Below are positions 12,449 to 37,007 of a stretch of 64,000 nucleotides of DNA, piece by piece; within the stretch, counting starts at the first letter, position 1, and each line of letters starts with the position of its first letter. Position numbers and translations under genes: made by a program. The stretch spans positions 96,001-160,000 of the forward strand of contig CAXXXF010000013.1 of the NCBI GenBank assembly GCA_963667175.2. Direction: 5' to 3'. This DNA is from Candidatus Latescibacterota bacterium. Its GTDB lineage: Bacteria > Latescibacterota > UBA2968 > GCA-2709665. The notes beneath the pieces are model-generated. The model was not told the origin of the DNA. It was given only the letters and a program-made list of their open reading frames with translations, and searched no databases.

Positions 12449-12534
12449 TGAAATCGAGACGGCGCATCTCTAACGAAAGGTCATTCACTTAGAATCCACT
12501 TCATTCAACAGATCTCCATTCGCCGAAGAACTGC

Positions 12535-13356: not shown

Positions 13357-13378
13357 TCATCGCGTCACCCGCAGCGGT

Positions 13379-16789: not shown

Positions 16790-17007
16790 CAACCACTCCT
16801 TTGAATCTGGTCTGCAAGCAAAGGGGATTCTACACCCGCAATGTAAAGACGCGGGGAAGGCGGGCACAAGGAAAAACCCTGGCGACCAATCCATTCGATT
16901 CGGTTGCCATCTGTGTTGTTTCGTCCTATCTTGGTTTCTCCGGCGACCGTTCAATCAAGGTAACGTCGGGACTGTAGACGTTCCAGGCGCATGTCGGCGT
17001 CCGGACC

Positions 17008-17036
17008 GTAGGGGCAGGTTTCAAACCTGCCCCTAC
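17008..17036. repeat. GTAG-type REP-like palindrome
   Basis: GTAGGGGCAGGTTT-C-AAACCTGCCCCTAC, perfect 14-bp arms, in a divergent intergenic region. Confidence 0.7.
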
Positions 17037-17088
17037 TTGCCCATGTTTGCGCCAGGCTGATTCTCAATATTGACCAGGAGAGGATACA

Positions 17089-21922: not shown

Positions 21923-21950
21923 TGCAATCCTCTCCAATACCGTTTGACGC

Positions 21951-23051: not shown

Positions 23052-23088
23052 CAGAACCTCTTTCATTCAAATGCCACCAACAATGAAC

Positions 23089-23754
23089 TCAGTTTTCCGC
23101 GATCCCGCCGAATTGCCACCCAATCCCGAGGCCGAATTCAAACCCGCTGTAGTTGCGCCTGCCCCCCAACGCTTCCGAAAAGTCCGTCATCAGGTTAAAT
23201 CCCAGGGTCGCATTCGTCACAACGGACCCGCCCATCCGAACGTCCAGCCCCGCGCCCGCCCGGCCCCCGAATGCCGTCATTGTCGCGGCCTTCTGAACCA
23301 CCTGTATTCCGACGTCGTTCCGGGCTTCAAAGCCGGCGACGGGTCCAATCCCCGCGGTCAGGAAGGGTCTGAACCGGGTTTGGAATGCAGGCGTGCCCGT
23401 GTAATATCTCACGCCGACGATTATCGGACAGATGACTGCCGCCCGCTGCGAGACGCCCGAAGGCCCAACCCGAGAACTCGCCTCGACGGCCATGACGCCG
23501 ACCGTGGCGTAACCGGCCACGTCTTGCCGCATCCAGCGCGAATAGCCCAGCGAGAAAAACAGGCCGCCCGACCCGGCGGTCGTTTCAACCCCCAACGGAC
23601 CGATCGTTGTCGCCGCGCCGCTATTTCCTCCCTGATGCCGCAGTCCCATCCTGAGTTCAATCCGGGACCGCCTTTCCATTTCGCCTGCAGATATCATCGC
23701 CGGCGTTGCCAGCAGCAGGAAACACAACAGTACCGTCGTTCTCATTGTCGTCAT
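23089..23754 (-). CDS. Outer-membrane beta-barrel protein (OmpW/OmpA-like)
   Basis: Signal peptide, alternating amphipathic strands, 'RPFLTAGIG', near-terminal 'GLGIGWQF'. Confidence 0.65.
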   Translation of the reverse strand: MTTMRTTVLLCFLLLATPAMISAGEMERRSRIELRMGLRHQGGNSGAATTIGPLGVETTAGSGGLFFSLGYSRWMRQDVAGYATVGVMAVEASSRVGPSGVSQRAAVICPIIVGVRYYTGTPAFQTRFRPFLTAGIGPVAGFEARNDVGIQVVQKAATMTAFGGRAGAGLDVRMGGSVVTNATLGFNLMTDFSEALGGRRNYSGFEFGLGIGWQFGGIAEN

Positions 23755-23988
23755 CTACGTCTCCCTTCGAAGTTTTTTACTTCTGGCGTTTGCGTAATGG
23801 ACGTGAATTCGTCAACATTGCGGCGACATTTACATGGATTATTTCAAAGTAACAACGGCGGATTTACGTCGAAATTCCTCGCATCCTTTGGTCAGTGAAC
23901 CTGACTTGGTAAACGGCGCAATTTGGCCTGGTTATTTCCACGTTTCTCGTGGAATGACTACACTGACAATTGATTTTATTTGAAGAAT

Positions 23989-26838
23989 TTAACTGATTTC
24001 AGTCTCGACGATCTGTATTTCGTCCTCAGTCAGGTCGTACAAATCATAAACGAGACGATCGATCCGCTGATCTGTCGCAGCAATCTGGCGCTGGATAGTT
24101 GTCTTTTCGTGGTGCGTCTTCGCAATCGCATAGTGTCTGTGAAGAGACAATATCTGTTCGACCAATTCCACCATTTGGCTATGACAGGCCGTGCAAACGG
24201 GGTCGGAAGCATCGATGTTGGGGATGGGTATTTCGTCAAGATGGTTTTTTTTGAGTTGAGCGATACTTCTTTTATTCGTCACATATCTGTTTGTAAAGAG
24301 AAAGTTCACAACAGCCGAATTTAAAATGCCAAGCAGATACATAAAGTCAAGATTACTGCGGTTGTTAAATAAAAAATACAACGATTGCTCAGGAAATATC
24401 CCCGAGTCATCAAATGTAGCGAGTATTCGGGCTCCTGTTTTCCTCAGGAGGATTTTTGGTTTTGCTCCCAACTTTATCTTGTTCGTCGTGCGGCCCGTTA
24501 TGTTTTGTTGATTGAATTCAAACCAATATTTCTTCTTGAGAGCATATCTGCCTATGCTGTCTCCCTTTAACGTCTCGATCTGTAAGTTACTCGTCCTTTT
24601 TGAAGTAATAGAACTTGATCTTCCTCCGAATCCAGAAGTCGTCTCACAGAGGTTGCCCAAAGGGCAAACATTTGATGAAGATTCGATTTTTTTTATCACG
24701 TTCCTTATTTCAACATTCTCATAGTATTGAAAAGTATGGGTTGGACTCTGTTCAAACTCTCGCTGCGGAATGTCTAGAGACTCCTTTCCGTACTCTCCGA
24801 TCGCAACAAGCTCGTCTCGATCCGGGTTATTCTTGCGTCGAAAAACGAACACCAAGGTGTCGGCAGTAATTCGAGGAAACGGAACCTTATAAACCAGTGA
24901 TAGAACTTGACATTGTTTCAATATCTCTCTTCGCAATTTCTGGAACTGGGAGTTGAATCCTAATCGATCAGGTACGATATAACCAAAATAACCACCATCA
25001 ATAATCAGACGGATTCCTTGTGCGATGAAGTACTCGTACATATTGGGCATGTAGGTATTGCCGGAAAACTTCTCGATCATGTAGTCTATTTCGTGCTTAG
25101 GGTAAATTCCGGCACCGAATTTTCCTTTCAAAGAAATCCAAGGCGGATTTCCGATTACAGCGTTAAAACCGCCTACCTTCATTATTGCTTGAAATTCATC
25201 TTCCCAGTCGAAAACGTTGATTCTGAAACGTTCGTTTTCGTCGAGTAGACTCATCTGCTGTTCGACATAAATGTCTGGACCGATGAGGGAATTCCCGCAC
25301 TTGATATTGTTCCCCAAATCAGGTAGGGCACGTTCGCGGAAGAACCTGAACTGACGTGTCAGCGTTTGTTCAGTCTCCCCCTCCAGAACCTTCAGCAACA
25401 GCGATAGCTTGGTGACTTCCACCGCCTGCGAATCAATGTCGACACCGTAGATATTGTCTAAAAGAATTCGTTTTCTTTCGCCAGTTGTTAGCCGCCAACC
25501 GCCGCTCGCATCCTGTTGGAGGGAAGGTGAACGTCCCTTCGACCATTTTTCGGGACCGTTTTTTGTATAAAAATCGTAATGCCAGTCAAGCAAACACTGG
25601 TAAGCACCAATGAGAAAAGACCCGGAACCACAGGCCGGATCGAGGATCTTTAGCTTCCCGACCTGCTTAAGGGATTTTTCTTTCAGCAACTGACCCACCG
25701 TGTTCTCTATGATGTAGTCTACGACGTAGGTAGGGGTGTAGTAGACGCCTCCCGCCTTTTTTGCTTCGGGCTTGTCCTCCACGACTGCACGGTGCTGCGT
25801 TGTAAGACGAATTACCTTGCCCAAGAATTGCTCGTATACCTGCCCAAGAATGTCAGCGGACAATACCGAGAATTCATAGGGGCTTTCGGGATAGTAAAGG
25901 CTCTTGATGATTTGCTTTATCGTCCTGTCATCAATCGTTAAGCCAAAACTTATCACATCTGGGTGGCCTGACCTTTGTTTTTCGTCTCTATAGTGAAACA
26001 GACCTGAATTATAGCGTTCATCGGCCCGTCGAAACAAGTGGCAGAGACGTGCGTACACATTTCTACCATTCTGAAGCGCCATGAGCTGGCCATAGTCCTC
26101 TACACCTCGATCTTCACAAATGCGAAGAAAGATGATCCGGTCGATTGTTCGGCCGACGGTGAAGTTGAGTTCACGCTGGCTTAAGCTGGGATTCCGTAGG
26201 GCAATATTGCGCGCAAGTGCCGTTCGCCACGACTCTATTTCTTCCAAAAAAGACGAGTCGATCTCAGAGGTTCCCCTCTTTCCTTTGCTTGATTCAACAT
26301 ACTCGTCAAATGAACCCCTTAGGACCGAATCGCGTGAGTATACCGAATCGATTTCGTTCCACCTGTCGATGTAATCGGCGTAATTAATGTAGAAAATACG
26401 CGCGACTGCGGCGCGGTCCGCCTGCGTCGGCCTAACCCGGCAATCGTAAACTGCGAATTCCTCGAAGTCGGTGAGTATGCTAAGGGGTAGCTTAGCCGAC
26501 CAGGCATAGCGGCGAAGTTGATAGGCTGGATGGGTGTCGCCCTTGATGTCTACTGATGGCTTCTTTGCCTCGAGAAAGAATTTTCGAGTACCGCCTATTC
26601 GGAAACAATAATCTGGCGCCTTTGTCGCGCCACCGATTTTGATGGCGCCTTCATGGATGACGTCCTTGTATGCCTCTGCATAGCCCCGCTTATTGCTCAC
26701 ATCCCAGCCAAGAACTTCGAAAAATGGATCGAGAAACTCCCGCCTTAGTTGAGTCTCGTTGTATGACCCAGATCTGTACGAATCGCGATTACGGTCAAAA
26801 CGGTCGACCAGTTCAACTATCTCTTTTGGCGTAATCAT
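23989..26838 (-). CDS. Type IIG restriction-modification fusion (Eco57I/TaqI-like: REase + N6-adenine MTase + TRD)
   Basis: N-terminal 'APDY...FLEAKKP' PD-(D/E)xK; 'GVYYTP'; motif I 'ILDPACGSGSFL'; motif IV 'IGNPPW'; TaqI_C-like 'YLLGILNS'; C-terminal 'IDRLVYDLYDLTEDEI'. Confidence 0.92.
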   Translation of the reverse strand: MITPKEIVELVDRFDRNRDSYRSGSYNETQLRREFLDPFFEVLGWDVSNKRGYAEAYKDVIHEGAIKIGGATKAPDYCFRIGGTRKFFLEAKKPSVDIKGDTHPAYQLRRYAWSAKLPLSILTDFEEFAVYDCRVRPTQADRAAVARIFYINYADYIDRWNEIDSVYSRDSVLRGSFDEYVESSKGKRGTSEIDSSFLEEIESWRTALARNIALRNPSLSQRELNFTVGRTIDRIIFLRICEDRGVEDYGQLMALQNGRNVYARLCHLFRRADERYNSGLFHYRDEKQRSGHPDVISFGLTIDDRTIKQIIKSLYYPESPYEFSVLSADILGQVYEQFLGKVIRLTTQHRAVVEDKPEAKKAGGVYYTPTYVVDYIIENTVGQLLKEKSLKQVGKLKILDPACGSGSFLIGAYQCLLDWHYDFYTKNGPEKWSKGRSPSLQQDASGGWRLTTGERKRILLDNIYGVDIDSQAVEVTKLSLLLKVLEGETEQTLTRQFRFFRERALPDLGNNIKCGNSLIGPDIYVEQQMSLLDENERFRINVFDWEDEFQAIMKVGGFNAVIGNPPWISLKGKFGAGIYPKHEIDYMIEKFSGNTYMPNMYEYFIAQGIRLIIDGGYFGYIVPDRLGFNSQFQKLRREILKQCQVLSLVYKVPFPRITADTLVFVFRRKNNPDRDELVAIGEYGKESLDIPQREFEQSPTHTFQYYENVEIRNVIKKIESSSNVCPLGNLCETTSGFGGRSSSITSKRTSNLQIETLKGDSIGRYALKKKYWFEFNQQNITGRTTNKIKLGAKPKILLRKTGARILATFDDSGIFPEQSLYFLFNNRSNLDFMYLLGILNSAVVNFLFTNRYVTNKRSIAQLKKNHLDEIPIPNIDASDPVCTACHSQMVELVEQILSLHRHYAIAKTHHEKTTIQRQIAATDQRIDRLVYDLYDLTEDEIQIVETEIS

Positions 26839-27051
26839 ATTGGGATTCTCAGACTGTCAACATTGCCCTGCTGTCTGTCAAGAAAGTAAAGGCATGTTTA
26901 AACGCCGTATTTCGGTTTTCGCCTGTCCCACACAATTCTAGCCCAAAAAAATCCATCCGGTTTCACTAAAGCATAAAGGAACAGAAAGTACACGAGTACT
27001 CAGCGTTTTCGTCAATGATGGCATATAGCAGAGAAGACCCTATGACCGAGA

Positions 27052-28089
27052 TTATCTCTGACACAAGGCTGTTGGAGCCATTTCTCTAATGAATGATTCG
27101 TGATTGGATCTCTGCGGCAAAATCGTCCTGGGATCATCGAGATCGATAACTATGGTACCAGCACAACACTTTCGTCCTTCTCGACCTTGGGCGAATGAAT
27201 CATTCAAGTGTTTGGGCGATGAGGTTGGTAGCCCTGATGCGCAGTGTTCCGAAAGTTGCGTACAAGCGATCCAGACTTCGGCCAATTCCTCGCGTATTGC
27301 AGCGACGATTTCAGGTCGAGGCGTGCTGTGTCGACCCCGACCGATTGAGAAAATTACCATTGCCGGAGAAGCAAGCTCACAGAGGTCCTTTGCGAAAGCG
27401 CTCAAGTCCGTGGAACCCGTTCTGCCACCATGATGTGGAAATACAACAATAGGGGCAGTCGCGTCCACTTCAGAAGCGCGAAGGTCGTCCAGACCGATGT
27501 GATCAAGGTCGCCGGGAAGCAGTGCAATTGGCTTCCCGCCCTTTGATAATCGCGTAACTACACTCACCGAATTACTGGTCAGTTTTCGACCGATGCGGTC
27601 CGTGCTACCCGGGCCCTTCGCGGCAAGATACTTGCTTGGGCCGAGGATCTCGATCTGCACTTCGGTGCTATCGAGCTTCGCTTCACTGCCTCTCGTCAAA
27701 GACGTACTAAAATCAAGCTCACCCTTCAGGTCGGTACTGTCAAGCTCGTACAGGAGATCGTCCCAACGTTTAGACTTTTTCGCAGAGTCAGTATTCACAT
27801 GCACCGATCTGATGCGGAACATTCCGGATGACAGCAAATGAACCAGACCTGCGATGTGGTCATCATCCGCGTGAGAAAGCAATACTGAGTCAATTGCAGT
27901 GATTCCCTTCGCTAACAGGTACTCAAGTAAGGAACTTCCAAGACCCGTATCGATAACCACGACACAATGAGAGTCGATAAGGACTGCACTGTTACCATGT
28001 CCTACATCAAGGATGGCCAGACAATGATTAAGTGCAGGTTTCGAATTACCATTAGTCGGCTTCCCAGCTATCGAAGTAAAGTTCTTCAT
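27052..28089 (-). CDS. ComEC/Rec2-type metallo-beta-lactamase-fold hydrolase (soluble; putative nuclease effector)
   Basis: 'ILDVGHGNS', 'VIDTG', 'LSHADDDHIAG', 'NSVSVV', 'LPGDL', 'PHHGG'; no TM segments; Cys-rich C-terminus. Start may be 28104. Confidence 0.85.
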   Translation of the reverse strand: MKNFTSIAGKPTNGNSKPALNHCLAILDVGHGNSAVLIDSHCVVVIDTGLGSSLLEYLLAKGITAIDSVLLSHADDDHIAGLVHLLSSGMFRIRSVHVNTDSAKKSKRWDDLLYELDSTDLKGELDFSTSLTRGSEAKLDSTEVQIEILGPSKYLAAKGPGSTDRIGRKLTSNSVSVVTRLSKGGKPIALLPGDLDHIGLDDLRASEVDATAPIVVFPHHGGRTGSTDLSAFAKDLCELASPAMVIFSIGRGRHSTPRPEIVAAIREELAEVWIACTQLSEHCASGLPTSSPKHLNDSFAQGREGRKCCAGTIVIDLDDPRTILPQRSNHESFIREMAPTALCQR

Positions 28090-28717
28090 GTTTCTCGGCT
28101 CCAACGTTTACGTGAGCATGAAGTCGCCTCTCTGGCTTTATAAGTGGTTGAATTTTCGGAGGCACGTCATCATACGAAACACGTATTTTTTCTCTTGAAC
28201 TCCAACCTGAGATGACAACGTAGAAATACTCCCTTTCATCCACCACTTCTTCGACTCGAACTTGCGTTCTCCAGGGCCTTCGACTCGGCTGAAATACCCC
28301 TCCAAATTCTCTGACGCATTGCTCAAAACCCTTTGCGATGTTTTCAGGATCGAGTTCACGGGGCTTTAACAGCGCCGGTATAAAGCGTCTACGGCTTCTC
28401 ATAAGGAAAACATCCACATCGGTGTAGCTTGTACAGAGTAAAGCTGGAAATCTTTTTCGGTAACAAGCGGCAACTAACTCGTCACCATTGAAATTCGCGT
28501 AATTCCCTTTCTTTCGCAGATGATAGTCGCACAGGACGGCATCCGCTCGAGTTGGTAACGCCTCCACAAACTGCTGCAGATTTTTGAGAGGCTTGGCCTG
28601 AGGGACAACTGTCAGTCCCAATTCCTCTATGGGGTATTCATAGCTATCCCTCGCTTCATTGTCGTCGTCGACGATTGAAACGCTTGCGAATGTCTTGTTG
28701 TCTATAAGCAATGGCAT
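28052..28717 (-). CDS. Receiver (REC) domain protein with unknown beta-rich C-terminal domain
   Basis: Acidic pocket 'IVDDD', phosphoacceptor 'AVLCDYHL', 'NGDELV', 'LLCTSY', 'LLKP'; no HTH. Confidence 0.78.
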   Translation of the reverse strand: MPLLIDNKTFASVSIVDDDNEARDSYEYPIEELGLTVVPQAKPLKNLQQFVEALPTRADAVLCDYHLRKKGNYANFNGDELVAACYRKRFPALLCTSYTDVDVFLMRSRRRFIPALLKPRELDPENIAKGFEQCVREFGGVFQPSRRPWRTQVRVEEVVDEREYFYVVISGWSSREKIRVSYDDVPPKIQPLIKPERRLHAHVNVGAEKHEELYFDSWEAD

Positions 28718-28720
28718 TTC

Positions 28721-30787
28721 TCATACTCCCAGGATCGGTACATCGATTCGAATTTCGGCGCCTCCAAGTTTACTGCGTTCAATTGCATCGACTTCCCCGC
28801 CAAGATCCTTAACGGTGTCCCGGACGATAGTTAGACCAAGCCCCGTTCCATCTTTTCTTGTCGTCTGACCAGGCAACCAAATATCCTTCTTGGGTATTCC
28901 GTCGATGCCAGGACCATTGTCAAGAACCCTTAGCCTAAAAATCCCGCCGTCAACTTCGGTACGGAGAAGGATCATTCTTGCTTCTGTGGTGGAATGTTCA
29001 AATGCGATAAGACTATTGTTGATTAAATTCGTAACAATGGACTCTACCGCGGCCTCACTTCCACTCAAAAAAGGCGCGCCATCACAGAGACAAAGTTCAA
29101 CTTTAACGTTTCTTCCTTCGAGAAACGGTTGGAATGTCTCAATAACGCTCTCGATGACTGTGTGTAGATCGACGTGAGAGATTCTACGCTTTTCATGTTC
29201 AACGAGCTTGAGTGTCGCTTGCCCAAGTACCTCAAGGCTCGCAATCGCTCGATTGATCCCTTGAACTGGCTTAAGAAACAACCTGTCGTATGTATTGCGA
29301 AGTGCCTTTCTTGCGCGTCTCTCAATTGCATCTATGGACATCGTGATACTCTTTATTGGATTGGCATTCGACTCATGCGCAAAGGTTGCTGCTGTGATAC
29401 CGGCAGTACTGAGTGTCCGATAGAGCTGAACTTCATTCTGTAGATTTCGAACCTCTCGGTCTCTCGACCGGTCGTACGCATCCACAGCATCAGTCAACAA
29501 CTGTTGAGATTCCGTAGGTACTTTACTTATAGCAGCATTGAGATCTTGCTTCGATCTGCTCGTTTTCTTTGGTGCGTCGGTACGCGCCCTGGCTCTTCGT
29601 TTCTCGGCCACCTCCAACCTTCTCTTAGCCATCCATTCCATTGCATCTTGAGCAAACGACTTCATCTCAAGAAAGGCATCCCCTTCTATAAATCCGGATC
29701 GGTCCGTTTTTTGAACCAACAGATTCTCGGTATCGAAGATTCTGACCCGACCTATTGCTGTATTGGTGCTCGGCCGCTCCTCTGGACTCCTTACTCTACT
29801 TAGGTTCATTTCCAGCCAATCATCCCCAGGGTTACCGTAGGGCATAACTCGTAACCCATTATGATACAGGTGGACTCCACCGAATTCCTGGAGCCACGTC
29901 CGAACCTCACCAAGCGTGGATGAACGAGTCAAGAAAGTCGACCTATTCAATATGTAAACCCAGAGGTCAAACTTAACGACCGAACATCGATATTTTTTAT
30001 CGTCACGGGAAACGGTCAATTCGTCATTGTCAGCTGAGAACAATTCCTCGCCGCGCCAGTCGACAACGGACGCTCTGGCTGTGCCGGTGTTGTCTATTGA
30101 AGCGATTAAGTGGTACTCCGCATCACCAAAGTATCGCGTTTGAACAATCGCTTCGAGGTCTGAATACTCTTCCGCCTTTAATTGTGGCTTGAACCCTTCC
30201 GGGTCATCCCCGAATGGGTCGGCCAACAATACAAGCTCTCTAGCCAATCGCTTCACGTCGAGCCGCCCAATTCGATTACTCAAATCTTCCAAATATATCT
30301 CCGAACCCGGCTTTATTCTCTCGGGACAAGAGCTTTTCTCAATGGAAAGTGTAACTTCGTCGACGTGCTCAACGTCTTCAAATTCCCTCCAATCAATCAG
30401 CAGGTCGTACTGAGTGGCTTTCTCTGTCCTTGGGAAAGTTGTAAGGTAAGCGGACGAGCCCATACGCAATGCGGCCAGCCTCCCGAGGCCTTTGCTACCT
30501 GCGGGTACTCTGCCACGGCGCGTGCGTTGATTGGATGATTTTCCCGATCTTCCAATTACAAGCCATCCGTTTTCGATATCTTGCGCGCCCATACCGTCGC
30601 CGTCGTCGACGATTTTAACAGATCCTCCCGGTTGGTCAGTTTGGATCAATTCTATCCTGCAGGTGCGTGCATCCGCATCATATGCGTTCTTGACAAGCTC
30701 GATAATCCCCTTGTCGGGGCTAGGGTTTAATTCCTCGCCAAGTCGACGTAGAATGTCAGTTGCAAATCGTATTTGTACACTGCTCAT
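28721..30787 (-). CDS. MORC/MutL-like GHKL ATPase fused to C-terminal histidine kinase
   Basis: GHKL 'IELVKNAYDADA', 'VDDGDGM', 'GSKGLGRLA'; S5-like 'LYHNGLRVMPYG..GDDWL', 'KTDRSGF'; HK H-box 'TFAHE', N-box 'NLINNS', 'DNGPGI', 'GTGLGL'; ATGA overlap with the upstream MTase. Confidence 0.9.
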   Translation of the reverse strand: MSSVQIRFATDILRRLGEELNPSPDKGIIELVKNAYDADARTCRIELIQTDQPGGSVKIVDDGDGMGAQDIENGWLVIGRSGKSSNQRTRRGRVPAGSKGLGRLAALRMGSSAYLTTFPRTEKATQYDLLIDWREFEDVEHVDEVTLSIEKSSCPERIKPGSEIYLEDLSNRIGRLDVKRLARELVLLADPFGDDPEGFKPQLKAEEYSDLEAIVQTRYFGDAEYHLIASIDNTGTARASVVDWRGEELFSADNDELTVSRDDKKYRCSVVKFDLWVYILNRSTFLTRSSTLGEVRTWLQEFGGVHLYHNGLRVMPYGNPGDDWLEMNLSRVRSPEERPSTNTAIGRVRIFDTENLLVQKTDRSGFIEGDAFLEMKSFAQDAMEWMAKRRLEVAEKRRARARTDAPKKTSRSKQDLNAAISKVPTESQQLLTDAVDAYDRSRDREVRNLQNEVQLYRTLSTAGITAATFAHESNANPIKSITMSIDAIERRARKALRNTYDRLFLKPVQGINRAIASLEVLGQATLKLVEHEKRRISHVDLHTVIESVIETFQPFLEGRNVKVELCLCDGAPFLSGSEAAVESIVTNLINNSLIAFEHSTTEARMILLRTEVDGGIFRLRVLDNGPGIDGIPKKDIWLPGQTTRKDGTGLGLTIVRDTVKDLGGEVDAIERSKLGGAEIRIDVPILGV

Positions 30788-32085
30788 TCGGCATCCCTCC
30801 ACCAAGGCAGATCCGCAATCGCTGACACTGTCAAGTGCCTACAGCAGATATATTGATCTAACCATTGGGTCGTCTTTGGATTCCGAAGAACTTCGAGTAG
30901 CTCGCGACAAGCCTCAATTGTCCCATCCATTGGGCGCAAGACAAGAAGATGATTCTCAACTGCAACGGCACTCTCCGTATTAACAATTGTCCCAAGCGCT
31001 CTGAATTTATCTCCCGGCCTTGAGGTCCGCCGAACCACAACAAATGGCGAAGCAATGACTTTGCCCTTAAACCTACGATATTGCGAAACTTCGCTGACCG
31101 TCTGCCATGATGATGAATTGCGAGCATGTACGAAAGGATGCGAAGGTCCTTCATGCGGGTCTCGATAGTCAACAACAGGACCGATACATACCTCGAACCA
31201 TTCCCCCACACTTGAAAGTGTCGGTCTAATTGGTCTACTCCAATGAAAACCATTCGATCCTTTAGTTTCTTCGTGAATCTCAACATCCAGAACAAATACA
31301 TCAACGTCGGTCCACCTATCAAACCTGCCATGTAATTCTATCCGATGCATTCTCGATCGTGATTCAACGAACTTTCGCCATTTTTCATACCGAGACCCAC
31401 TTCTGAGCACATCAGGCAATATTGCTACGATTCGTGTCCCACAATTCGCGTGGCGAATGCATGCCTCCATAAAGAGCGCGGCGGCATTTACCTTTCCGCT
31501 GGCCCAATTACAACTTTCAGGTGCGGTTGACAGACCGAAGGGTGGATTTACGACAATGTGTGTAGCCGCCTTGATCGCGTCCTCGTCCGAAATCCCGCAC
31601 GCACAGACAATCTTGGGAAACGTCTCTTGAACATTGGGGACACTACATTTATCCCGAATATTGTCGCGAAATGCAGCTAGTAAGAGCCTCGCCTTTGCGG
31701 CCTGAATGAACTTTGGATAGATGTCGCGGCCCATTATCTGGGCGCCCCAACTTTTCAGAGTAGTATCAAGATCGTTGTTTTTGCCTAATTTGGTAGCGCA
31801 TGTGATGAGCAAATCACCAGTGCCACATGCAGGATCCAAAATGACTGATCGATCGTCAATCGTACCAACGAAGGATTTCACCGCGATTTGTGATAAATCG
31901 GAACCCGTAAAGAAAGCACCCGACGTCCGTAGTTCCGTCAACGAAACGAGCCTGCGCAGTTCCTGCGCAGGCTGACCATCCAATGCGTCGTCGATGCGCG
32001 CAATTGTGTCGTCATTTTCCGATAGATCCACTGACTCCAGAATCAAGGAATGAAGGTAGTCGAGATATGGTGCGAATTTGTCCAT
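30784..32085 (-). CDS. N6-adenine DNA methyltransferase (gamma class) with C-terminal TRD-like region
   Basis: 'GAFFT', motif I 'ILDPACGTGDLL', motif IV 'VNPPF', 'AILPDVL', C-terminal 'VVRRTSRP...AVENHL'. Confidence 0.88.
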   Translation of the reverse strand: MDKFAPYLDYLHSLILESVDLSENDDTIARIDDALDGQPAQELRRLVSLTELRTSGAFFTGSDLSQIAVKSFVGTIDDRSVILDPACGTGDLLITCATKLGKNNDLDTTLKSWGAQIMGRDIYPKFIQAAKARLLLAAFRDNIRDKCSVPNVQETFPKIVCACGISDEDAIKAATHIVVNPPFGLSTAPESCNWASGKVNAAALFMEACIRHANCGTRIVAILPDVLRSGSRYEKWRKFVESRSRMHRIELHGRFDRWTDVDVFVLDVEIHEETKGSNGFHWSRPIRPTLSSVGEWFEVCIGPVVDYRDPHEGPSHPFVHARNSSSWQTVSEVSQYRRFKGKVIASPFVVVRRTSRPGDKFRALGTIVNTESAVAVENHLLVLRPMDGTIEACRELLEVLRNPKTTQWLDQYICCRHLTVSAIADLPWWRDAE

Positions 32086-32158
32086 AGGCGCCGCATCTTT
32101 CAACCACGCTCGCAGAGTTACCGCTTGAAACAGCAATTATCACGAAAGGCCCTGCGAA

Positions 32159-32187
32159 AATGTACGGCAGATTACGATTATCGTCAA
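32159..32187 (-). promoter_or_regulatory. Putative sigma70 promoter of the island operon
   Basis: Minus strand TTGACG-N17-TACATT about 70 nt upstream of the MTase ATG. Confidence 0.5.
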
Positions 32188-33861: not shown

Positions 33862-34616
33862 TTAGGCGCCAGCACGAGCCGTTCCGCATTCTTGTAGGCG
33901 ATCTGCTCCCTTTCCTGTTCCGTAATATCCGCCGCGGCCAGCAGGGTGGGGAACGCCATCGGCTCGTACAGAGGCGAATCCGTTCCGAAGAGGACCCTGT
34001 CCGCGCCCACCTCACGCACGACCAGCCCGATGATGCCGGTCCGAATCGCCCGCGCGGTGCCCATGTCCGTGTAGAGGTTGCCCGTTCTGCAATCCTGCAG
34101 CGCGTCGATCGCCTCGTACGTCTGGCCCGGCTGTCCGGCGCCGAAATGCGCCGTTATCAACGTCAGGGACGGGAATGCTTCGGCCAGCCGCCGCAAACGG
34201 GCCGGGGCCGCGTAGGACTCGTTTTCTCCGTGGGAAAGCACGGGAAGCCCGAGCGGCTCCAACTTTTCGAAAAGCCGGAAAGTGGGCTTGATGTCGGCCG
34301 GATACTTGTGCTGTACCGGGTGGATTTTGATGCCGGCGACCATGGGATGATCCTTGAACCGCTCCAGCAACTCCAGCGACTCGCTCATTTTCAGCGGGTT
34401 CAAAACCAGCCAGACGAGCAGATGGTTCAGCTTCTCAGCCTGCTCTATGGTCCATTCGTTCCCGTACGTCAGCTCCGTAAACAGCGCGGAACCGGACGTG
34501 ACCACGGTCCGTTCGATGCCCGCGCGCTCCTGCAGCGCCACGAATCCCTCGGCCGTAAACGTTGTAACGTCGTCGAACCACGGCCCCAGATGGGCGTGCG
34601 TGTCGATATATCGCAT
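33849..34616 (-). CDS. Amidohydrolase family (TIM-barrel) protein
   Basis: 'IDTHAH', 'GIKIHP', 'PVLSHG', 'AHFG', 'VLFGTDSP', 'NAERL'. Confidence 0.88.
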   Translation of the reverse strand: MRYIDTHAHLGPWFDDVTTFTAEGFVALQERAGIERTVVTSGSALFTELTYGNEWTIEQAEKLNHLLVWLVLNPLKMSESLELLERFKDHPMVAGIKIHPVQHKYPADIKPTFRLFEKLEPLGLPVLSHGENESYAAPARLRRLAEAFPSLTLITAHFGAGQPGQTYEAIDALQDCRTGNLYTDMGTARAIRTGIIGLVVREVGADRVLFGTDSPLYEPMAFPTLLAAADITEQEREQIAYKNAERLVLAPKKLF

Positions 34617-34661
34617 GTGACGTCCCTCCGGTTTCAACTTCCCGCTTATTCGTCCCTGGAA

Positions 34662-35987
34662 TTACACGACCCTGCCCACGGCCTCGATCAATCCGTCCAC
34701 GTGGCTTTCGTCCATCGGCGCGGAGACGGCGCACATCACCAGGCCGTTCCCCAGGTAATATCCCTCTTCGATCAGACCGAGCAACAGCCGGTGCGCCGCC
34801 GCCTTGTCCGTTCCCGCCAGGTGGCGGTAATTCAGCATCTCTTCGCACGAAAAGTGAATGCTGAACAGTGAGCCGACACCGACCGCGGTCGCATTCACAT
34901 TTTTCGCCGAAAACAGGCGATTCAACCCATGCCTGAGCCGCTCTCCCAGCCGGTTCAGGTGCGCGAATACATCCGGCGTCAACTGCTTCAGGGTCGCCAG
35001 GCCCGCGGCCATGGCCACAGGATGCCCGCTGAACGTGCCGCTCTGAAAGAAACCTGTCGGCCCCCGGGACGAATCGAAGCGATCCATCAGGTCGGCCCGG
35101 CCTCCGAAGGCCCCCACAGGAAACCCGCCGCCGATGACCTTTCCAAACGTCGTCAGGTCGGGCGCGATGCCGTAGTGTTCCTGCAGACCCCCGGCGCCGA
35201 CCCGGAACCCCACGATCTCGTCGAATATCACCAGCACATTGATCCGGCGCGCCATGTCACACACGAACTGCGCAAACTCCGCGCGTTGAGACAAGATGCC
35301 GGCCCTGGGGTCGAAGATCACACACGCCAGTTCGTTCCGGTGTCGCGCGAGCAATCTCTCAACCGCGTTCTCGTCGTCATACGGCAGGACCACCACCTCG
35401 CCGGCAGCGTTCGGTGATGCGCCGCCCGCCGTGGAAACCGAATGCGGAGCCGACGCGGGGCCCGCCTTTTCCAGCGGCGGCGCCACGCTCACCTCCACCA
35501 CGTCGTGGCTGCCGTGGTACCCGCCCTCGAACTTGGCGATTTTCGTCCGGCCGCTGACGCCCCGCGCCAGGCGAATGGCGTGCAGGGTCGCTTCGGTGCC
35601 GGAATTGCAGAACCGGATCTTTTCCACGGACTTCACTCGCCCGCACATCTCTTCGGCCAGCTCTGTCTCTACCCCCGCGGGCGCGCTGAGCGCGATGCCT
35701 CGGGAAACCTGTCCCTGCACGGCGGCTACGACCGCCGGATGGTTGTGGCCCAGAATCTGCGCGGTATGGTGGTTGTTGAAGTCCGTCAGTTTGCGGCCGT
35801 CCAGGTCGTATACGTAACACCCCTCGCCTCGCTCGACGGTCAGCGGATAGGGCTCGTAATAGTACGCGCCTTTCACCCCGCCGGGCATCACCGACCTGGC
35901 CTGCTCGAAGGCCGCCCCGGAGCGCGGACTCCCCGCACGGTAACGTTCCGCCGATGACGGCCTGCTTTCAGCCGATGTCTCATCCAT
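34662..35987 (-). CDS. Class III aminotransferase, glutamate-1-semialdehyde aminomutase-like paralogue
   Basis: 'MPGGV', 'NSGTEAT', 'KFEGGYHG', 'FDEIVGFR', 'PDLTTFGKVIGGGFPVGAFGG'. Confidence 0.88.
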   Translation of the reverse strand: MDETSAESRPSSAERYRAGSPRSGAAFEQARSVMPGGVKGAYYYEPYPLTVERGEGCYVYDLDGRKLTDFNNHHTAQILGHNHPAVVAAVQGQVSRGIALSAPAGVETELAEEMCGRVKSVEKIRFCNSGTEATLHAIRLARGVSGRTKIAKFEGGYHGSHDVVEVSVAPPLEKAGPASAPHSVSTAGGASPNAAGEVVVLPYDDENAVERLLARHRNELACVIFDPRAGILSQRAEFAQFVCDMARRINVLVIFDEIVGFRVGAGGLQEHYGIAPDLTTFGKVIGGGFPVGAFGGRADLMDRFDSSRGPTGFFQSGTFSGHPVAMAAGLATLKQLTPDVFAHLNRLGERLRHGLNRLFSAKNVNATAVGVGSLFSIHFSCEEMLNYRHLAGTDKAAAHRLLLGLIEEGYYLGNGLVMCAVSAPMDESHVDGLIEAVGRVV

Positions 35988-35996
35988 GCCGATTTC

Positions 35997-36998
35997 TCAA
36001 TCCATCCGGAAACGCTCGAAAACAACGTGCTGGTAGGGGGATTCCGATCCTGCTTCGTACAGGCAGCCGACCGAGCCGTCCGAAAGCAACGCAAGACACG
36101 AATACGCCGCCGGTCCTTCGTGCAGCAGTTTCGCCGAGGACCAGGTCATGCCACCGTCGTTACTCGATCGGACGGTCATATTCACCCGCTCGCCTCCATC
36201 CGGGCTTGCGGGCTCCGGCGCCGCGGGATTCGAAAACAGCAGGCTGTTCTTCCCGATGCCTTCGACCATGCTGGCCTGGCATTTGGGACAGGGAAGGTTG
36301 CGGTCGTGTGTGAACCCGGTCCAGGACGCCCCGCCGTCCCGGCTGAACGCCGTTCCGCGATACCCTTCGCTGTGCGTCTGCATCCGGGTATTCATGACCA
36401 CGGTCCCGTCCGCGAGTTCGACGAACTGGCACTCGTTGGCCCCCGGCCGGACCGAGCCCCCGAGCCGCCAGGACGCCCCGCCGTCGTCGCTGTACACCGA
36501 ATGGGAACCGCAGTCGTACGTTTCCGGATTCCGGTGGTCGCAGGGAATCAGCAGCCGCCCTTTCCGCGCGCCCCTCCTGAGCTGGATGCCCACCCCCGGA
36601 CCCGTCGCGTACCAGGACCACGCCTCCTCTTTCACGTCTTGCGTGACGTCGATGGGATCGGACCACGAGAGGCCGTCGTCGGAACTGTGCGTGAGCAGCA
36701 CGTCGATATTGTCCCTGCAGAACAACATCCGGATCGTGCCCGTCTCCGCGTGTACCACGGGGCACGGGTTGCCGATGGTCACCTCTCCCGCTTCACAATA
36801 GACGACTGCCTGCTCTGACCAGGTACGCCCTCCGTCTTCCGAACGCTTCACCAGGAGATCGATATCGCCGTGGTCCGCCCGGCTGTTTCGCCTGCCCTCG
36901 CAGAAGGCCAGCAGCGATCCCCCGGGCGCAGCAAGCAGCGCCGGAATCCGGTACGTGTGGTACCCATCCCGTCCGCTGGTGAATACATTCGTCTTCAC
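35997..36998 (-). CDS. Sialidase-family (BNR repeat, GH33-like) protein
   Basis: 'YRIP' motif; Asp boxes SEDGGRTW, SDDGLSW, SDDGGASW, SRDGGASW, SNDGGMTW; 'AYS', 'LYE'. Confidence 0.9.
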   Translation of the reverse strand: MKTNVFTSGRDGYHTYRIPALLAAPGGSLLAFCEGRRNSRADHGDIDLLVKRSEDGGRTWSEQAVVYCEAGEVTIGNPCPVVHAETGTIRMLFCRDNIDVLLTHSSDDGLSWSDPIDVTQDVKEEAWSWYATGPGVGIQLRRGARKGRLLIPCDHRNPETYDCGSHSVYSDDGGASWRLGGSVRPGANECQFVELADGTVVMNTRMQTHSEGYRGTAFSRDGGASWTGFTHDRNLPCPKCQASMVEGIGKNSLLFSNPAAPEPASPDGGERVNMTVRSSNDGGMTWSSAKLLHEGPAAYSCLALLSDGSVGCLYEAGSESPYQHVVFERFRMD

Positions 36999-37007
36999 GC
37001 GTTTCCC

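Follow-up and report, generated by a model that had tools for sequence, protein, structure and literature searches.

A candidate restriction-modification-like defence cassette with a GHKL-histidine kinase, a receiver protein and a ComEC-type hydrolase in a Candidatus Latescibacterota bacterium

The window, i.e. the whole stretch of 64,000 nucleotides of Candidatus Latescibacterota DNA analysed here, contains a cassette of four genes on the minus strand. These encode an N6-adenine DNA methyltransferase (MTase; ORF 1, 30784..32136, with an ATG at 32085), a histidine kinase (HK; ORF 2, 28721..30805, ATG at 30787), a receiver protein (RR; ORF 3, 28052..28717), and a metallo-beta-lactamase-fold (MBL) hydrolase (ORF 4, 27052..28104, likely ATG at 28089). 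The junctions were read directly: the MTase stop and the HK start overlap as ATGA at 30784-30787 with GGAGGG upstream, the TGA of the HK gene is followed after 3 nt by the RR ATG, and the RR stop codon TAA (28052-28054) lies within the MBL ORF, giving a 38-nt overlap with the likely MBL ATG. The GC content is 0.42-0.51 over positions 24001-32000 compared to about 0.6 in the flanks, and ORFs, junctions, and GC profile thus agree with the first-pass annotation, which had described four co-oriented, tightly coupled genes on an AT-richer island. Its gene list of the island omitted a Type IIG restriction-modification (R-M) gene (23989..26838, minus strand), which shares the AT-rich island between housekeeping genes with the cassette. 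For the single promoter that it had proposed, the promoter-like site TTGACG-17 nt-TACATT (32159..32187, minus strand) upstream of the MTase start matches the consensus at 9 of 12 positions, but the region contains 7 such matches against 9.5 expected from shuffles, and the site is a weak promoter candidate.

ORF 1 read from the ATG at 32085 encodes a gamma-class N6-adenine DNA MTase of 433 aa (30784..32085, minus strand), matched by Pfam N6_Mtase (2.8e-9) and PADLOC MTase_II (1.1e-10). Pattern searches located motif I, DPACGTG, at residues 84-90 (31816-31836) and motif IV, NPPF, at residues 180-183 (31537-31548); D84, G88, N180, and P181 are invariant among 70 sequences. By our reading of its sequence pattern, the C-terminus appears to be a conserved TaqI_C-like region.

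The HK is a soluble GHKL(MORC-like)-histidine kinase fusion of 688 aa (28721..30787, minus strand) with Pfam HATPase_c_3 at the N-terminus (1.9e-19) and HATPase_c at the C-terminus (1.1e-17). The N-terminal Bergerat-fold ATPase domain (residues 26-144; 30356..30712, minus strand) carries the motifs E30xxxN34xxD37, D61xGxG65, and G97xxGxG102, found by pattern search as ELVKNAYDA, DDGDG, and GSKGLG. All of these motif residues are invariant in a family alignment of 30 sequences, which uses a 694-aa numbering equal to the 688-aa numbering plus 6. The residues F-A-H-E-S of the H-box, including the predicted phospho-accepting His471 (codon 29375..29377, minus strand; H477 in the 694-aa numbering), are likewise invariant (n = 30). 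The catalytic ATP-binding (CA) domain (28736..29056, minus strand) comprises an N box (N587/N591), a G1 box (D623xGxG627), and a G2 box (G647xGxG651), and the C-terminal motifs read FAHE, NLINN, DNGPG, and GTGLG in the pattern search. In a PDB profile search, DHp plus CA matched ZraS (1.5e-15); the N-terminus matched MORC2 (2.3e-5) and MORC2/MORC3 PDB chains (2e-5 to 4e-4), while residues 18-192 matched the NCBIfam model for BbrUII/HgiDII restriction enzymes (NF050001; 6e-18), and there was a match to PADLOC REase_II (1e-7). These profile matches support a MORC/paraMORC-like N-terminal module, as proposed earlier for the input of the kinase. The kinase had also been described as lacking a membrane sensor, and we found no TM-like segment in it (maximum Kyte-Doolittle 19-residue mean 0.97).

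The RR protein comprises 221 aa. Its REC domain (28304..28717, minus strand; AF2 mean pLDDT 94.2) contains DD17-18, D64 (codon 28526-28528), and CT95-96 according to pattern search. Across 64 sequences, D18 and D64 do not vary, and D17 is kept in at least 90%. The window RR reached Pfam Response_reg only at E = 0.023; 37 of 64 members matched this model at E ≤ 1 and none of the 64 matched Response_reg_2. In a Foldseek search of the PDB, all matches listed down to rank 16 were receiver domains (E about 1e-4, TMt about 0.7), and it is on this predicted fold that the REC nature of the window protein rests. All motifs reported in the first-pass annotation were present in the window, including the canonical REC lysine as K118-P, but this lysine is not conserved across the RR family (n = 64). 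The missing conservation and the match of only 37 of 64 members to Response_reg count against the proposed relay, and phospho-acceptance by the RR is therefore putative. The C-terminal part (residues 139-221; 28055..28303, minus strand) is a private all-beta domain with five strands in the model and the predicted MBL-binding output domain. It had no Pfam match, and no HTH or wHTH Pfam match was obtained in the 64 members; R146 and N204 are invariant and R150, W172, and G206 are each kept in at least 90% of sequences (n = 64), while the C-termini of distant RR relatives could not be aligned with it. The RR profile retrieved 396 representatives at E ≤ 1e-30 among 1.84 billion. No fusion of the RR into a longer protein was found, in a search that is weak evidence on this point, and its absence from 50,697 phage records is neutral.

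ORF 4 (27052..28104, minus strand) encodes a ComEC-type MBL-fold hydrolase with a Cys-rich C-terminal part, which has 350 aa if started at TTG 28104 and probably 345 aa from ATG 28089. It was matched by Pfam Lactamase_B (2.3e-10) and TIGR00361 ComEC/Rec2 (1.8e-10), and a HADDDH motif was found by pattern search at 27856-27873. With its model (AF2 mean pLDDT 90.5) as query, the ComEC MBL domain 9ic4 was the top Foldseek match (E 3.4e-15, TMt 0.79), in line with the earlier ComEC-type assignment, followed by the phosphorylcholine esterase Pce and an ElaC homologue (1zkp) and, further down, RNase Z. MBL-fold enzymes act also on RNA and small phosphodiesters. In 67 sequences, D52, H78, D82, H83, D199, H224, H225, C281, C288, and C348 are invariant, and at least 90% share D80, C313, C314, and H335, each taken singly. 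The catalytic residues of all four cassette proteins are invariant or nearly so in family alignments.

For the distribution analysis, we used the best 80 of 120 confirmed relatives, obtained from 133 pattern matches. In these best 80 of 120 loci, tblastn and ORF clustering recovered the order MTase-HK-RR-MBL, with the HK in 80/80, the RR and the MBL in 78/80 each, and a cognate MTase homologue in 76/80. The two loci without RR and MBL, L017 and L040, come from short contigs (2.5 and 2.8 kb) that end inside or just after the HK gene. As to the MTase, it is replaced at L008 by genes for an HmaB-like methylase and an HmaA-like SNF2 helicase, the latter overlapping the HK start, and at L061 by a BsuBI/PstI R-M pair; L009 and L054 carry HK-RR-MBL without a recognisable MTase gene beside them, which argues against an obligatory protective methylase. 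Median gaps at the junctions are a few nucleotides or overlaps (n = 73 loci). No fifth conserved gene was found in the 80 loci, where the next most widespread real cluster covers 7 loci, nor was a conserved XRE or other regulator gene. The loci span about 13 phylum-level groups, as grouped by us from record titles; since the same four genes occur in the same order in 80 loci, the arrangement is more than chance. HK identity is 47-81% between distant lineages, and insertion sites differ even within Latescibacterota metagenome-assembled genomes. Also, 4 of 72,556 plasmids carry the cassette, among them a conjugative Burkholderia plasmid on which it is annotated as M subunit, ATP-binding protein, response regulator, and MBL fold metallo-hydrolase. 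Across loci, the identity of the HK to its window counterpart correlates with that of its partners to theirs (Spearman 0.76 for HK-RR, 0.72 for HK-MBL, and 0.53 for HK-MTase, values inflated by shared ancestry). Altogether, these data support the view that the four genes form a real, conserved, and horizontally mobile unit.

The flanks of the cassette vary between loci and often contain mobile or defence genes. Of 29 sampled loci, 15 have a Pfam or PADLOC match of mobile-element or defence type at most 2 ORFs from the cassette, and the neighbours at the other 14 are only housekeeping or unannotated genes. Adjoining genes include those for integrase, TrwC relaxase, transposase, terminase, HmaC, HEC-01A, PDC-S02, PDC-S28, and C3a139. 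In the window, a 213-nt gap separates the MBL gene from the gene of the Type IIG R-M enzyme (949 aa; PADLOC PDLC03604, 9.2e-197; Pfam Eco57I, TaqI_C, and HSDR_N). A clear homologue of this enzyme was found at 1 of 80 loci (L002, 90% identity) and a weak partial match at L075, and the syntenic locus L001 has the cassette at the same site without the Type IIG gene. The enzyme is a separate acquisition outside the cassette.

Complex modelling was used to analyse the RR-MBL pair, which scored 0.82 (runs 0.82, 0.82, and 0.78), the best of three controls reaching 0.01. Among solved complexes, 58 of 80 attain this score mark, and among mismatched pairs 2 of 110 do so; both counts are rough here since own alignments were used. 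At least 76% of contacts agreed between runs, and the partner pLDDT was at least 81. In the predicted interface, RR residues 143-206 contact MBL residues 55-61, 81-95, 112-120, and 304-309; the RR side is formed wholly by the beta-domain, which sits beside the MBL metal motif H78-H83 and touches residues 81-82 and 84-95 at and just after it. In the RR domain, conservation is higher at the interface than elsewhere (0.61 vs 0.47; permutation p about 0.01), while the MBL shows no such excess (0.48 vs 0.54, p 0.84). The model thus supports RR-MBL binding but does not show it, and the earlier idea of a receiver acting directly on the MBL gains from the model and its controls but not from conservation on the MBL side.

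We hold it to be somewhat more probable than not that the cassette is a self-contained, mobile, R-M-like system against phages or other mobile genetic elements, which follows the logic of the Ambrosia system with a different effector and output. The gamma-class MTase would place m6A on host DNA, and the MORC/paraMORC-type GHKL ATPase would serve as kinase input by engaging DNA or a DNA-bound state. The signal may then pass through the long middle region to DHp, where His471 would be autophosphorylated by the C-terminal CA domain, as its intact and invariant motifs suggest, and the phosphoryl group would be transferred to Asp64 of the receiver. Since the RR beta-domain is placed beside the HxDxDH motif in the complex model, REC phosphorylation would switch the hydrolase post-translationally and not transcriptionally. 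The ComEC MBL domain is reported to have nuclease activity (PMC8579336), and by analogy the MBL would degrade nucleic acid, most likely DNA.

The same contact may also be wired inversely, with the unphosphorylated RR capping a constitutively toxic MBL and kinase and MTase maintaining the cap in an intact element. If the cassette were lost, or if a phage anti-restriction protein inhibited MTase or kinase, the nuclease would be freed, with abortive infection or post-segregational killing as the result instead of targeted restriction. R-M systems commonly act as addiction modules, the cassette lies next to ParDE on plasmids, and contacts at MBL residues 81-82 and 84-95 are compatible with occlusion of the metal motif. 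Against this stand L009 and L054, where HK-RR-MBL without an adjoining MTase indicates that the MTase is not always needed for survival, and we consider such wiring unlikely. Computation favours neither activation nor inhibition of the MBL, and the inverse wiring has most steps in common with the best explanation.

Similarly improbable is transcriptional control, in which the phosphorylated RR would be a DNA-binding inducer of the MTase and MBL genes on infection and the amount of MBL would be decisive. DNA binding by a small beta-barrel is conceivable, and transcriptional control is the working model, as far as the available part of the preprint describes it, for Ambrosia, the sole tested relative, in which AbrC carries a wHTH, infection raises reporter expression, and defence is lost with D60A (10.1101/2025.09.30.679545). 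The five-stranded RR C-terminus has no three-helix bundle, however, and the lack of HTH/wHTH matches (n = 64) and of a conserved XRE or other regulator gene (80 loci) also speaks against this view, as does the complex model, which puts this very domain on the MBL; moreover, with all four genes translationally coupled and sharing one upstream region, the nuclease could hardly be induced on its own. The least probable reading, a non-immune epigenetic, DNA-repair, or regulatory mobile unit whose kinase reports DNA topology or methylation and whose MBL acts on RNA or on a signal of the small phosphodiester type, would fit the 14 of 29 loci with inconspicuous neighbours, the missing defence-library matches of HK and RR, and an MBL fold that covers RNases and esterases, but it is at odds with the patchy spread of the cassette, its varied insertion sites, its GC content below that of the host, the adjoining integrase, relaxase, Hma, R-M, and PDC genes, the DNA nuclease domain as nearest structural relative of the MBL, and the phage defence by Ambrosia, the nearest architecture as far as described.

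To place the preferred defence reading among known systems, PADLOC was consulted as had been proposed, along with NCBIfam and Pfam: PADLOC recognised the Type IIG enzyme, the four-gene set is named by no model of PADLOC 2.0.0, NCBIfam 20, or Pfam, and in the first two libraries neither HK nor RR is named as a defence protein. Detocs, the defensive two-component system, reportedly combines a sensor kinase of the TPR type with a buffer REC protein and a fusion of REC and ATP nucleosidase, and is said to lack an MTase, a GHKL/MORC input, and an MBL. It shares with the cassette a His-Asp phosphorelay as anti-phage signalling layer and a REC-linked effector; no Detocs-named PADLOC model was among the window matches. 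The ComEC MBL domain (9ic4) has the same N-terminal DVGxG-type and HxDxDH-type metal motifs as the cassette MBL, which we take to be ComEC signatures. However, in ComEC this domain belongs to a membrane channel, of which it forms the extracytoplasmic part, whereas the cassette MBL is soluble, stands alone, has an additional Cys-rich region at its C-terminus, and is partnered by a receiver protein. The paraMORC-type GHKL restriction enzymes (BbrUII/HgiDII, NF050001) likewise combine an N-terminal Bergerat ATPase with a link to a DNA MTase, and in BbrUII/HgiDII-type enzymes the same GHKL module is fused directly to a nuclease. As far as described by Iyer, Abhiman and Aravind 2008 (PMC2292703), in whose available text 'receiver', 'lactamase', and 'two-component' do not occur, the GHKL part of paraMORC enzymes shares a polypeptide or an operon with a nuclease or helicase, whereas in the cassette it is fused to an HK transmitter and the nuclease is connected via the receiver.

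The first-pass annotation had recognised no named, characterised system, which holds for the exact gene set but overlooks two relatives. R-M-linked GHKL-HK/REC pairs (HEF_HK/Response_reg_2) were described computationally by Bellieny-Rabelo et al. 2021 (PMC8011034). In the accessible part of that study, they resemble the cassette in the soluble kinase with HATPase_c_3, DHp, and HATPase_c, the adjacent divergent REC protein, the R-M neighbourhood, and the paraMORC affinity, but occur mainly with C5-MTases and HNH, Vsr, or other nucleases instead of an N6-MTase and an MBL; 'lactamase' and 'MBL' are absent from its main text as available. The window HK and RR did not match PF19191 and PF19192 even at E ≤ 10, and PF19192 matched none of 64 RR relatives. 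Plasmids of Campylobacter and Enterobacter carry full-length HK relatives with about 25% identity, paired with RR-like proteins of 340-357 aa, whose C-termini are unrelated to the RR beta-domain.

The second relative is Ambrosia, which according to the available part of the 2025 preprint consists of XRE-MTase-HATPase/HK-REC-HNH (AbrR-AbrA-AbrB-AbrC-AbrD), defends Pseudomonas aeruginosa, and depends for this on each of its five proteins and on the REC Asp (10.1101/2025.09.30.679545). Compared by architecture and description, not by sequence, AbrA-D and the cassette both combine R-M and two-component parts, with an N6-adenine MTase, a 'sensor histidine kinase/HSP90-like ATPase', a REC protein, and a nuclease in one cluster. 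As far as described, Ambrosia differs in its type IV HNH endonuclease in place of the ComEC-type MBL, its fifth gene for the XRE protein AbrR without conserved counterpart in the 80 cassette loci, its wHTH-bearing, transcriptional AbrC in place of an all-beta, predicted effector-binding RR, and its restriction to Gammaproteobacteria (76% Pseudomonadales) in contrast to about 13 phylum-level groups. Phage methylated by the Ambrosia MTase stayed sensitive (10.1101/2025.09.30.679545), so that classical R-M logic may be wrong. Going by these descriptions, the concept is not new, and the cassette is a relative of Ambrosia with an MBL effector, without XRE gene and wHTH, and probably with a post-translational output.

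Between 23.9 and 32.1 kb of the window the GC content falls to 0.42-0.51, compared with ~0.6 on either side, and this AT-rich island is occupied by five genes on the minus strand. Four of them form a cassette encoding a DNA methyltransferase (MTase; 30784..32085, from ATG), a histidine kinase of 688 aa (HK; 28721..30787), a response regulator of 221 aa (RR; 28052..28717) and a metallo-β-lactamase-fold protein of 350 or 345 aa (MBL; 27052..28104 or 27052..28089). The fifth gene, separated from the MBL gene by 213 nt, encodes a Type IIG restriction-modification (R-M) enzyme of 949 aa (23989..26838). The tight coupling described in the first-pass annotation was read directly in the sequence: an ATGA stop/start overlap at 30784-30787 with GGAGGG just 5′ joins the MTase and kinase genes, the TGA of the kinase gene is followed by gaa and the RR ATG, and the RR stop lies within the MBL frame. 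For the putative promoter that had been placed ahead of these genes, a consensus-like site is present at 32187-32159, but the match is weak and the region is not enriched in such matches. The terminator scan returned a perfect hairpin with an 11-bp stem, AGCCTGCGCAG GAA CTGCGCAGGCT, at 31949-31973 (minus strand) in the 5′ part of the MTase coding region, which may be coincidental.

The island is flanked by genes of ordinary metabolism (class III aminotransferases, an amidohydrolase, an oxidoreductase and an S15 peptidase). Neither a tRNA gene nor an integrase gene was found in the window, and direct or inverted repeats flanking the island did not exceed short pairs of chance size. Elsewhere in the window, two proteins are encoded amid housekeeping genes: a stand-alone 150-aa HSDR_N_2 protein (10905-11357, plus strand; 9.2e-33), corresponding to a PD-(D/E)xK-like type I restriction R-protein N-terminus, and a 132-aa PIN-domain protein (3666-4064, plus strand; 5.6e-15).

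The kinase has at least 120 relatives listed in its cluster, with 59-96% identity and 660-713 aa, all of them with both ATPase domains. An alignment of 30 of these was used to scan one genome per species, yielding 133 pattern matches, 120 of which encode relatives, and the best 80 of these 120 loci (L001-L080) were fetched. Gene content was determined by tblastn with the window proteins and by all-against-all clustering of ORFs of at least 70 aa, and both approaches agree. Among these best 80 of 120 loci the kinase was found in all 80, RR and MBL in 78 each, and the cognate MTase in 76. RR and MBL are both missing from L017 and L040, short contigs (2.5 and 2.8 kb) whose sequence stops within the kinase gene or shortly after it. 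The MTase gene is located upstream and co-oriented in 73 loci, inverted in two (L049, L053), and ~2 kb away from the kinase gene with ORFs inserted between them in one (L016). In this latter locus, ORFs of 148 and 460 aa (5918-7772, plus strand), neither with a Pfam or PADLOC match, lie between a shortened MTase (378-aa ORF) and the kinase; they may represent an insertion that broke the cassette. RR follows directly 3′ of the kinase with a gap of a few nt in nearly all of the 73 loci measured, and consecutive cassette genes mostly overlap or lie a few nt apart, with gaps computed from the starts of the longest ORFs.

ORF clustering revealed no fifth conserved gene, the next independent cluster spanning 7 of 81 sources; antisense ORF clusters 4-11 were rejected as genes, being shadows of the four conserved ones. 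Also, a conserved XRE regulator was found neither in the best 80 of 120 loci nor as an ORF upstream of the cassette in the window. The phylum tally, taken from record titles with names grouped into phyla by us, comprises Latescibacterota, Planctomycetota, Spirochaetota, Gemmatimonadota, Verrucomicrobiota, Armatimonadota, Pseudomonadota, Acidobacteriota, Bacteroidota/Rhodothermales, Chloroflexota, Actinomycetota, Myxococcota and 'delta proteobacteria' in the best 80 loci, with a cyanobacterial plasmid as a further group beyond them. The order MTase-HK-REC-MBL, whose conservation across taxa had been put forward for checking, recurs in the best 80 loci across ~13 phyla.

The Type IIG enzyme of the island is complete (HSDR_N, Eco57I/MmeI-type MTase and TaqI_C; PADLOC PDLC03604, 9.2e-197), and its membership in the system was rejected. 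By tblastn, a clear homologue among the best 80 loci occurs in L002 alone (90% identity), with a further weak partial match in L075. The window regions 20109-23060 and 33865-37820 are collinear with L001 and L002, two public MAG contigs, one of them labelled Candidatus Latescibacterota, at 71-88% nucleotide identity. In L001 the cassette lies at the same chromosomal site without the Type IIG gene, and the window region 23060-27060, which holds this gene and a 221-aa ORF at 23089-23754 without a Pfam match, has no counterpart there. Because the Type IIG gene is rare and missing in L001, we regard the four genes as the unit and the Type IIG gene as a second, independent passenger of the island, in agreement with the first-pass annotation.

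The cognate MTase is missing from four loci with the kinase. Its position 5′ of HK-RR-MBL is taken in L008 (1446-8004, plus strand) by an HmaB-like adenine methylase of 1079 aa (2e-36) and an HmaA-like SNF2 helicase of 1150 aa (1.8e-92), and the end of the helicase gene overlaps the start of the kinase gene; this locus is a hybrid of an Hma-type modification module and the HK-RR-MBL trio, and HmaC was not found downstream. In L061 a BsuBI/PstI-type R-M pair is located divergently upstream. For L009 and L054, neither Pfam nor PADLOC revealed a methylase next to the trio, and the ORFs adjoining the kinase gene (264 aa at 7089-7883, plus strand, and 331 aa at 7100-8095, minus strand, respectively) matched neither Pfam nor PADLOC models, so that a methylase is either absent from these trios or replaced by a partner that went unrecognised. 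Based on these four loci, HK-RR-MBL acts as a portable sensor-effector trio that, with rare exceptions, is paired with a methylase. A second link between cassette and Hma besides L008 was observed in L027, where HmaC (8.9e-92), two small ORFs and HmaB (8.7e-62) lie tail-to-tail with a complete MTase-HK-RR-MBL cassette (12019-17988, minus strand).

All catalytic motifs named in the first-pass annotation were recovered in the window proteins by pattern search. The MTase matches Pfam N6_Mtase and carries DPxCGxG (motif I) before NPPF (motif IV), the order of gamma-class methyltransferases; D84, G88, N180 and P181 are invariant in 70 sequences, in which conservation extends to a C-terminal region with RRTSRP ... 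ENHL ... CRHLT. No membrane-like segment was detected in any cassette protein. Pfam assigns HATPase_c_3 to the N-terminal and HATPase_c to the C-terminal part of the kinase. In 30 sequences the Bergerat motifs I-III (ExxxNxxD, DxGxG, GxxGxG) are intact and invariant, as is every residue of the FAHES H-box and the N, G1 and G2 boxes. The family profile matched the DHp and CA domains of solved histidine kinases (ZraS, 1.5e-15) and, with residues 27-121, human MORC2 and MORC3 (2.3e-5 to 3.9e-4), and the NCBIfam model of BbrUII/HgiDII restriction enzymes covers residues 18-192 (6e-18). The middle region of ~300 residues is highly conserved and includes an invariant QKTDRSG at 359-365, a loop that is a candidate for the S5 ATP-contacting Lys. 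Past residue 121 no sequence match to MORC chains was obtained, and neither the profile nor the Atlas search assigned an S5 fold to the middle region; the Atlas search with residues 125-440 led at 0.85 to hypothetical clusters with HATPase_c_3, which serves as a lead only.

RR gave nothing significant in Pfam, with Response_reg at E=0.023 under a relaxed threshold. Its AlphaFold (AF2) model (mean pLDDT 94.2) comprises a REC fold (residues 1-~138) and a five-stranded β domain (residues 149-219), and Foldseek against the PDB returned receivers (E ~1e-4, TM to target ~0.7). The predicted (βα)5 fold has the acidic pair, the phospho-Asp and the Thr/Ser of a receiver: across 64 sequences D18 and D64 do not vary and D17 reaches at least 90% conservation, and CT is present at 95-96. 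The DD, D, T and K residues listed in the first-pass annotation are all found in the window protein, but the β5 Lys (K118) is not conserved in the 64 sequences. In the C-terminal domain R146 and N204 are invariant and R150, W172 and G206 near-invariant. This domain has no Pfam match and an HTH Pfam match occurs in 0 of 64 members; as to a name, Foldseek with the whole model gave receivers alone and the Atlas 28 unnamed clusters. Fusion of RR to longer proteins was seen in 0 of 682 candidates, which is weak evidence. A profile search with RR in 1.84 billion cluster representatives yielded 396 matches at E<=1e-30, 809 at E<=1e-10 and 1726 at E<=1e-3, and every one of the best 150 is 175-241 aa long.

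RR has no DNA-binding output domain. One reading of its role is that it controls transcription, as proposed for Ambrosia, the Pseudomonas defence system AbrR-AbrA-AbrB-AbrC-AbrD. The REC protein of Ambrosia carries a wHTH output domain (10.1101/2025.09.30.679545, available text), whereas RR has five β strands in the model and an HTH in none of the 64 members, and we consider transcriptional control unlikely here.

The partner proposed for RR is the MBL protein, which matches Lactamase_B and ComEC/Rec2 in sequence. In a Foldseek search with its model (mean pLDDT 90.5), the top match was the β-lactamase-like nuclease domain of ComEC (9ic4, E 3.4e-15), which outscores the next structural match by four orders of magnitude. 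The putative metal ligands H78, D82, H83, D199, H224 and H225 are invariant and D80 is at least 90% conserved. An MBL fold with HxDxDH, downstream Asp and His ligands and ComEC as the closest solved structure thus characterises the modelled protein as ComEC-type. Furthermore, C281, C288 and C348 are invariant and C313, C314 and H335 at least 90% conserved, a Cys/His set whose pattern suggests a zinc site.

The complex model of RR and MBL reached a score of 0.82 (0.82, 0.82 and 0.78 in three runs), compared with 0.01 for the best of three controls. Among solved complexes 58 of 80 reach the score mark, as do 2 of 110 mismatched pairs, figures that apply only roughly to a run with own alignments. 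At least 76% of contacts are shared between the runs, and the partner pLDDT is 81 or more. Since we know of no similar solved complex, it seems unlikely that the model passed by way of a memorised structure. On the RR side the predicted interface lies in the C-terminal β domain alone (residues 143-206), and on the MBL side it comprises residues 55-61, 81-95, 112-120 and 304-309, that is, the helix starting in HxDxDH and its neighbours. Conservation at the RR interface positions exceeds that of the remaining domain (0.61 vs 0.47, permutation p ~0.01), which does not hold for the MBL interface positions (0.48 vs 0.54, p 0.84). Taken as a prediction, the model supports binding of RR to MBL but does not show it.

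On balance we lean towards reading the cassette as an R-M-like defence system with a MORC-type input, a phosphorelay, a switch of MBL by RR and a self mark set by the MTase, a reading based on the gene set, its conservation, the intact motifs, the folds and the predicted RR-MBL contact. In this reading, the MORC-type ATPase of the kinase would sense DNA, the signal would pass by phosphotransfer from His471 to Asp64, and RR, already bound to the ComEC-type hydrolase via its private domain, would switch this enzyme post-translationally, while methylation by the MTase might protect self DNA. The first-pass annotation had interpreted the genes as a phosphorelay-gated defence system of this kind; the conserved unit, the MORC-like input and the predicted RR-MBL contact agree with it, but the lack of conservation of the β5 Lys does not. 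Both the direction of the RR switch and a DNA substrate of MBL are presumed in this scheme, and inverse wiring of the switch or an addiction module is an improbable alternative to it, a non-immune role of the cassette a very unlikely one. Within the defence reading, we consider a 'two-component restriction enzyme' plausible, though somewhat less likely than not, in which a His-Asp phosphorelay would replace the GHKL-nuclease fusion and RR would carry a dedicated adaptor domain clamped near the active site of the ComEC-type nuclease.

In a survey of neighbouring genes, two ORFs per side were analysed with Pfam; 34 loci were randomly drawn from 53 with full flanks and five dropped for a size limit, leaving 29 loci with 115 flank ORFs. 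Adding 11 ORFs of exceptional loci to the Pfam scan gave 126 ORFs, of which 46 without a clear housekeeping match or looking like defence genes were analysed with PADLOC. A mobile-element or defence-type neighbour was present in 15 of 29 loci, a descriptive figure without a background rate: integrases (L047, L053), TrwC relaxases (L051, L059), a transposase (L034), terminase-like proteins (L019, L067), HmaC with HmaB further on (L027), HEC-01A (L021), C3a139 and PDC-S02 (L026), PDC-S28 (L033), and DUF4420, pYEATS/DUF932, HNH-AP2 and WD40-Roc-DUF4365 proteins (L035, L036, L007 and L052, respectively). Neighbours in the other 14 loci are housekeeping or unannotated. Of 72,556 plasmid records, 4 carry the cassette; among 50,697 phage records, none does. 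On a conjugative Burkholderia plasmid it adjoins ParDE, and its genes bear the RefSeq labels 'type I R-M subunit M', 'ATP-binding protein', 'response regulator' and 'MBL fold metallo-hydrolase'. Latescibacterota MAGs differ in the site of the cassette (L001 vs L004/L005); together with the low GC content in the window, this points to acquisition by horizontal transfer.

If the cassette is such a 'two-component restriction enzyme', phosphorylation of RR would gate DNA cleavage directly, within seconds and without transcription, and the cassette would represent an immune class with a nuclease as response-regulator output in ~13 phyla and ~400 representative RR clusters. A real, direct RR-nuclease switch would be a new class of response-regulator output and possibly a phosphorylation-gated nuclease tool. 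Documentation of two-component signalling in immune systems is just starting (Detocs, Ambrosia), and the cassette is a compact, soluble, four-protein version in which RR appears to hold the effector nuclease directly. Sensing by MORC and paraMORC proteins is a question spanning bacteria, plants and animals; the MORC-like module of the cassette would have a readable His-then-Asp output and, in the 'two-component restriction enzyme' case, would become a tractable model of how MORC-type ATPases turn DNA state into a chemical signal.

The first-pass annotation had not recognised the four genes as a named system, and in the PADLOC run the four proteins indeed obtained generic MTase, REase_II N-terminal and MBL matches and nothing more. 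Among NCBIfam models, they matched generic HK, ComEC and MTase models alone, far under the respective cut-offs. As none of the models scanned in PADLOC 2.0.0 and NCBIfam 20 represents the cassette, genome annotation at present misses it, and no description of the MTase-HK-REC-MBL set was found in the main texts of the literature searched.

Soluble kinases with HATPase_c_3, DHp and HATPase_c beside divergent REC proteins in R-M neighbourhoods were described by computation alone by Bellieny-Rabelo et al. 2021 (PMC8011034), who created the Pfam families HEF_HK and Response_reg_2; the main text of that paper does not mention an MBL protein. HK shares with these pairs the soluble architecture, including a DHp domain with H-E, and the cassette, like them, has its HK and RR genes side by side in an R-M setting. 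HEF_HK (PF19191) did not match HK at E<=10, the presence of PF19191 in the Pfam copy used being unconfirmed, and the precomputed Pfam domains of the 120 listed HK relatives are PF02518, PF13589 and PF14501 alone. Response_reg_2 (PF19192) did not match the window RR at E<=10 and matched 0 of 64 members at E<=1.

More distant, full-length kinase relatives of ~25% identity with the same double-ATPase architecture were observed on Campylobacter armoricus plasmid pCA639-1 (L083, 5989-10439) and an Enterobacter mori plasmid (L082, 5986-9208). Their partner REC proteins of 340-357 aa have unrelated C-terminal regions: in hhalign comparisons of RR with the 340-aa protein of L083 and the 357-aa protein of L082, the REC part alone was aligned, with probabilities of 23% and 2%, respectively. 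Neither HEF_HK nor Response_reg_2 matched these plasmid relatives at E<=0.01. The Campylobacter pair is followed by a convergent C5 MTase. In the organism tally, a kinase match is recorded for 41 Campylobacter plasmid records, many from conjugative plasmids, and among the plasmid matches listed the kinase coverage is 96-97% in 24 of 30 rows. The plasmid pairs look like a sister system in which the effector is fused to or replaced by the RR C-terminus.

The input module is shared with paraMORC restriction enzymes (Iyer 2008; NF050001), where it is fused to a nuclease; an HK, receiver or MBL context is absent from the available text of Iyer 2008. Classical Type II R-M systems consist of MTase and endonuclease without a signalling layer, whereas the cassette has HK and RR between them. 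Detocs reportedly combines a sensor HK in a DtcA/DtcB/DtcC set with a buffer REC and a REC fused to the effector, without an MTase, so that the use of a phosphorelay would be its sole likeness to the cassette. No Detocs-named model was among the PADLOC matches, the presence of such models in the release being unconfirmed. The text of Payne 2024, on Hma-embedded candidates, mentions no histidine kinase, response regulator, MBL or GHKL, and in the CoCoNuT paper and the V. cholerae WASA preprint such domains appear in unrelated systems.

The nearest tested relative by architecture is Ambrosia, which, according to the available text of the preprint, comprises an XRE protein, an N6 MTase, a HATPase/HK, a REC-wHTH protein and a type IV HNH nuclease and occurs in Gammaproteobacteria (10.1101/2025.09.30.679545). 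It is described there as protecting P. aeruginosa, with every gene and REC D60 required, as being upregulated on infection, and as having an AbrA methylation that does not protect phage; HMM cut-offs are 100 (AbrA), 500 (AbrB), 150 (AbrC) and 200 bits (AbrD). As far as described in that text, Ambrosia and the cassette both bring together genes for an N6 MTase, a HATPase/HK, a REC protein and a nuclease in a single cluster. The effector is the type IV HNH protein AbrD in Ambrosia and an MBL-fold protein in the cassette, where no HNH is conserved in the best 80 loci, and the HipB-like XRE regulator AbrR has no conserved counterpart. The cassette lacks these three defining features of Ambrosia (HNH, XRE, wHTH) and is set apart by its gene content. 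Compared with Ambrosia it is broader in range and has a different effector, and its output probably differs as well, acting by protein-protein contact.
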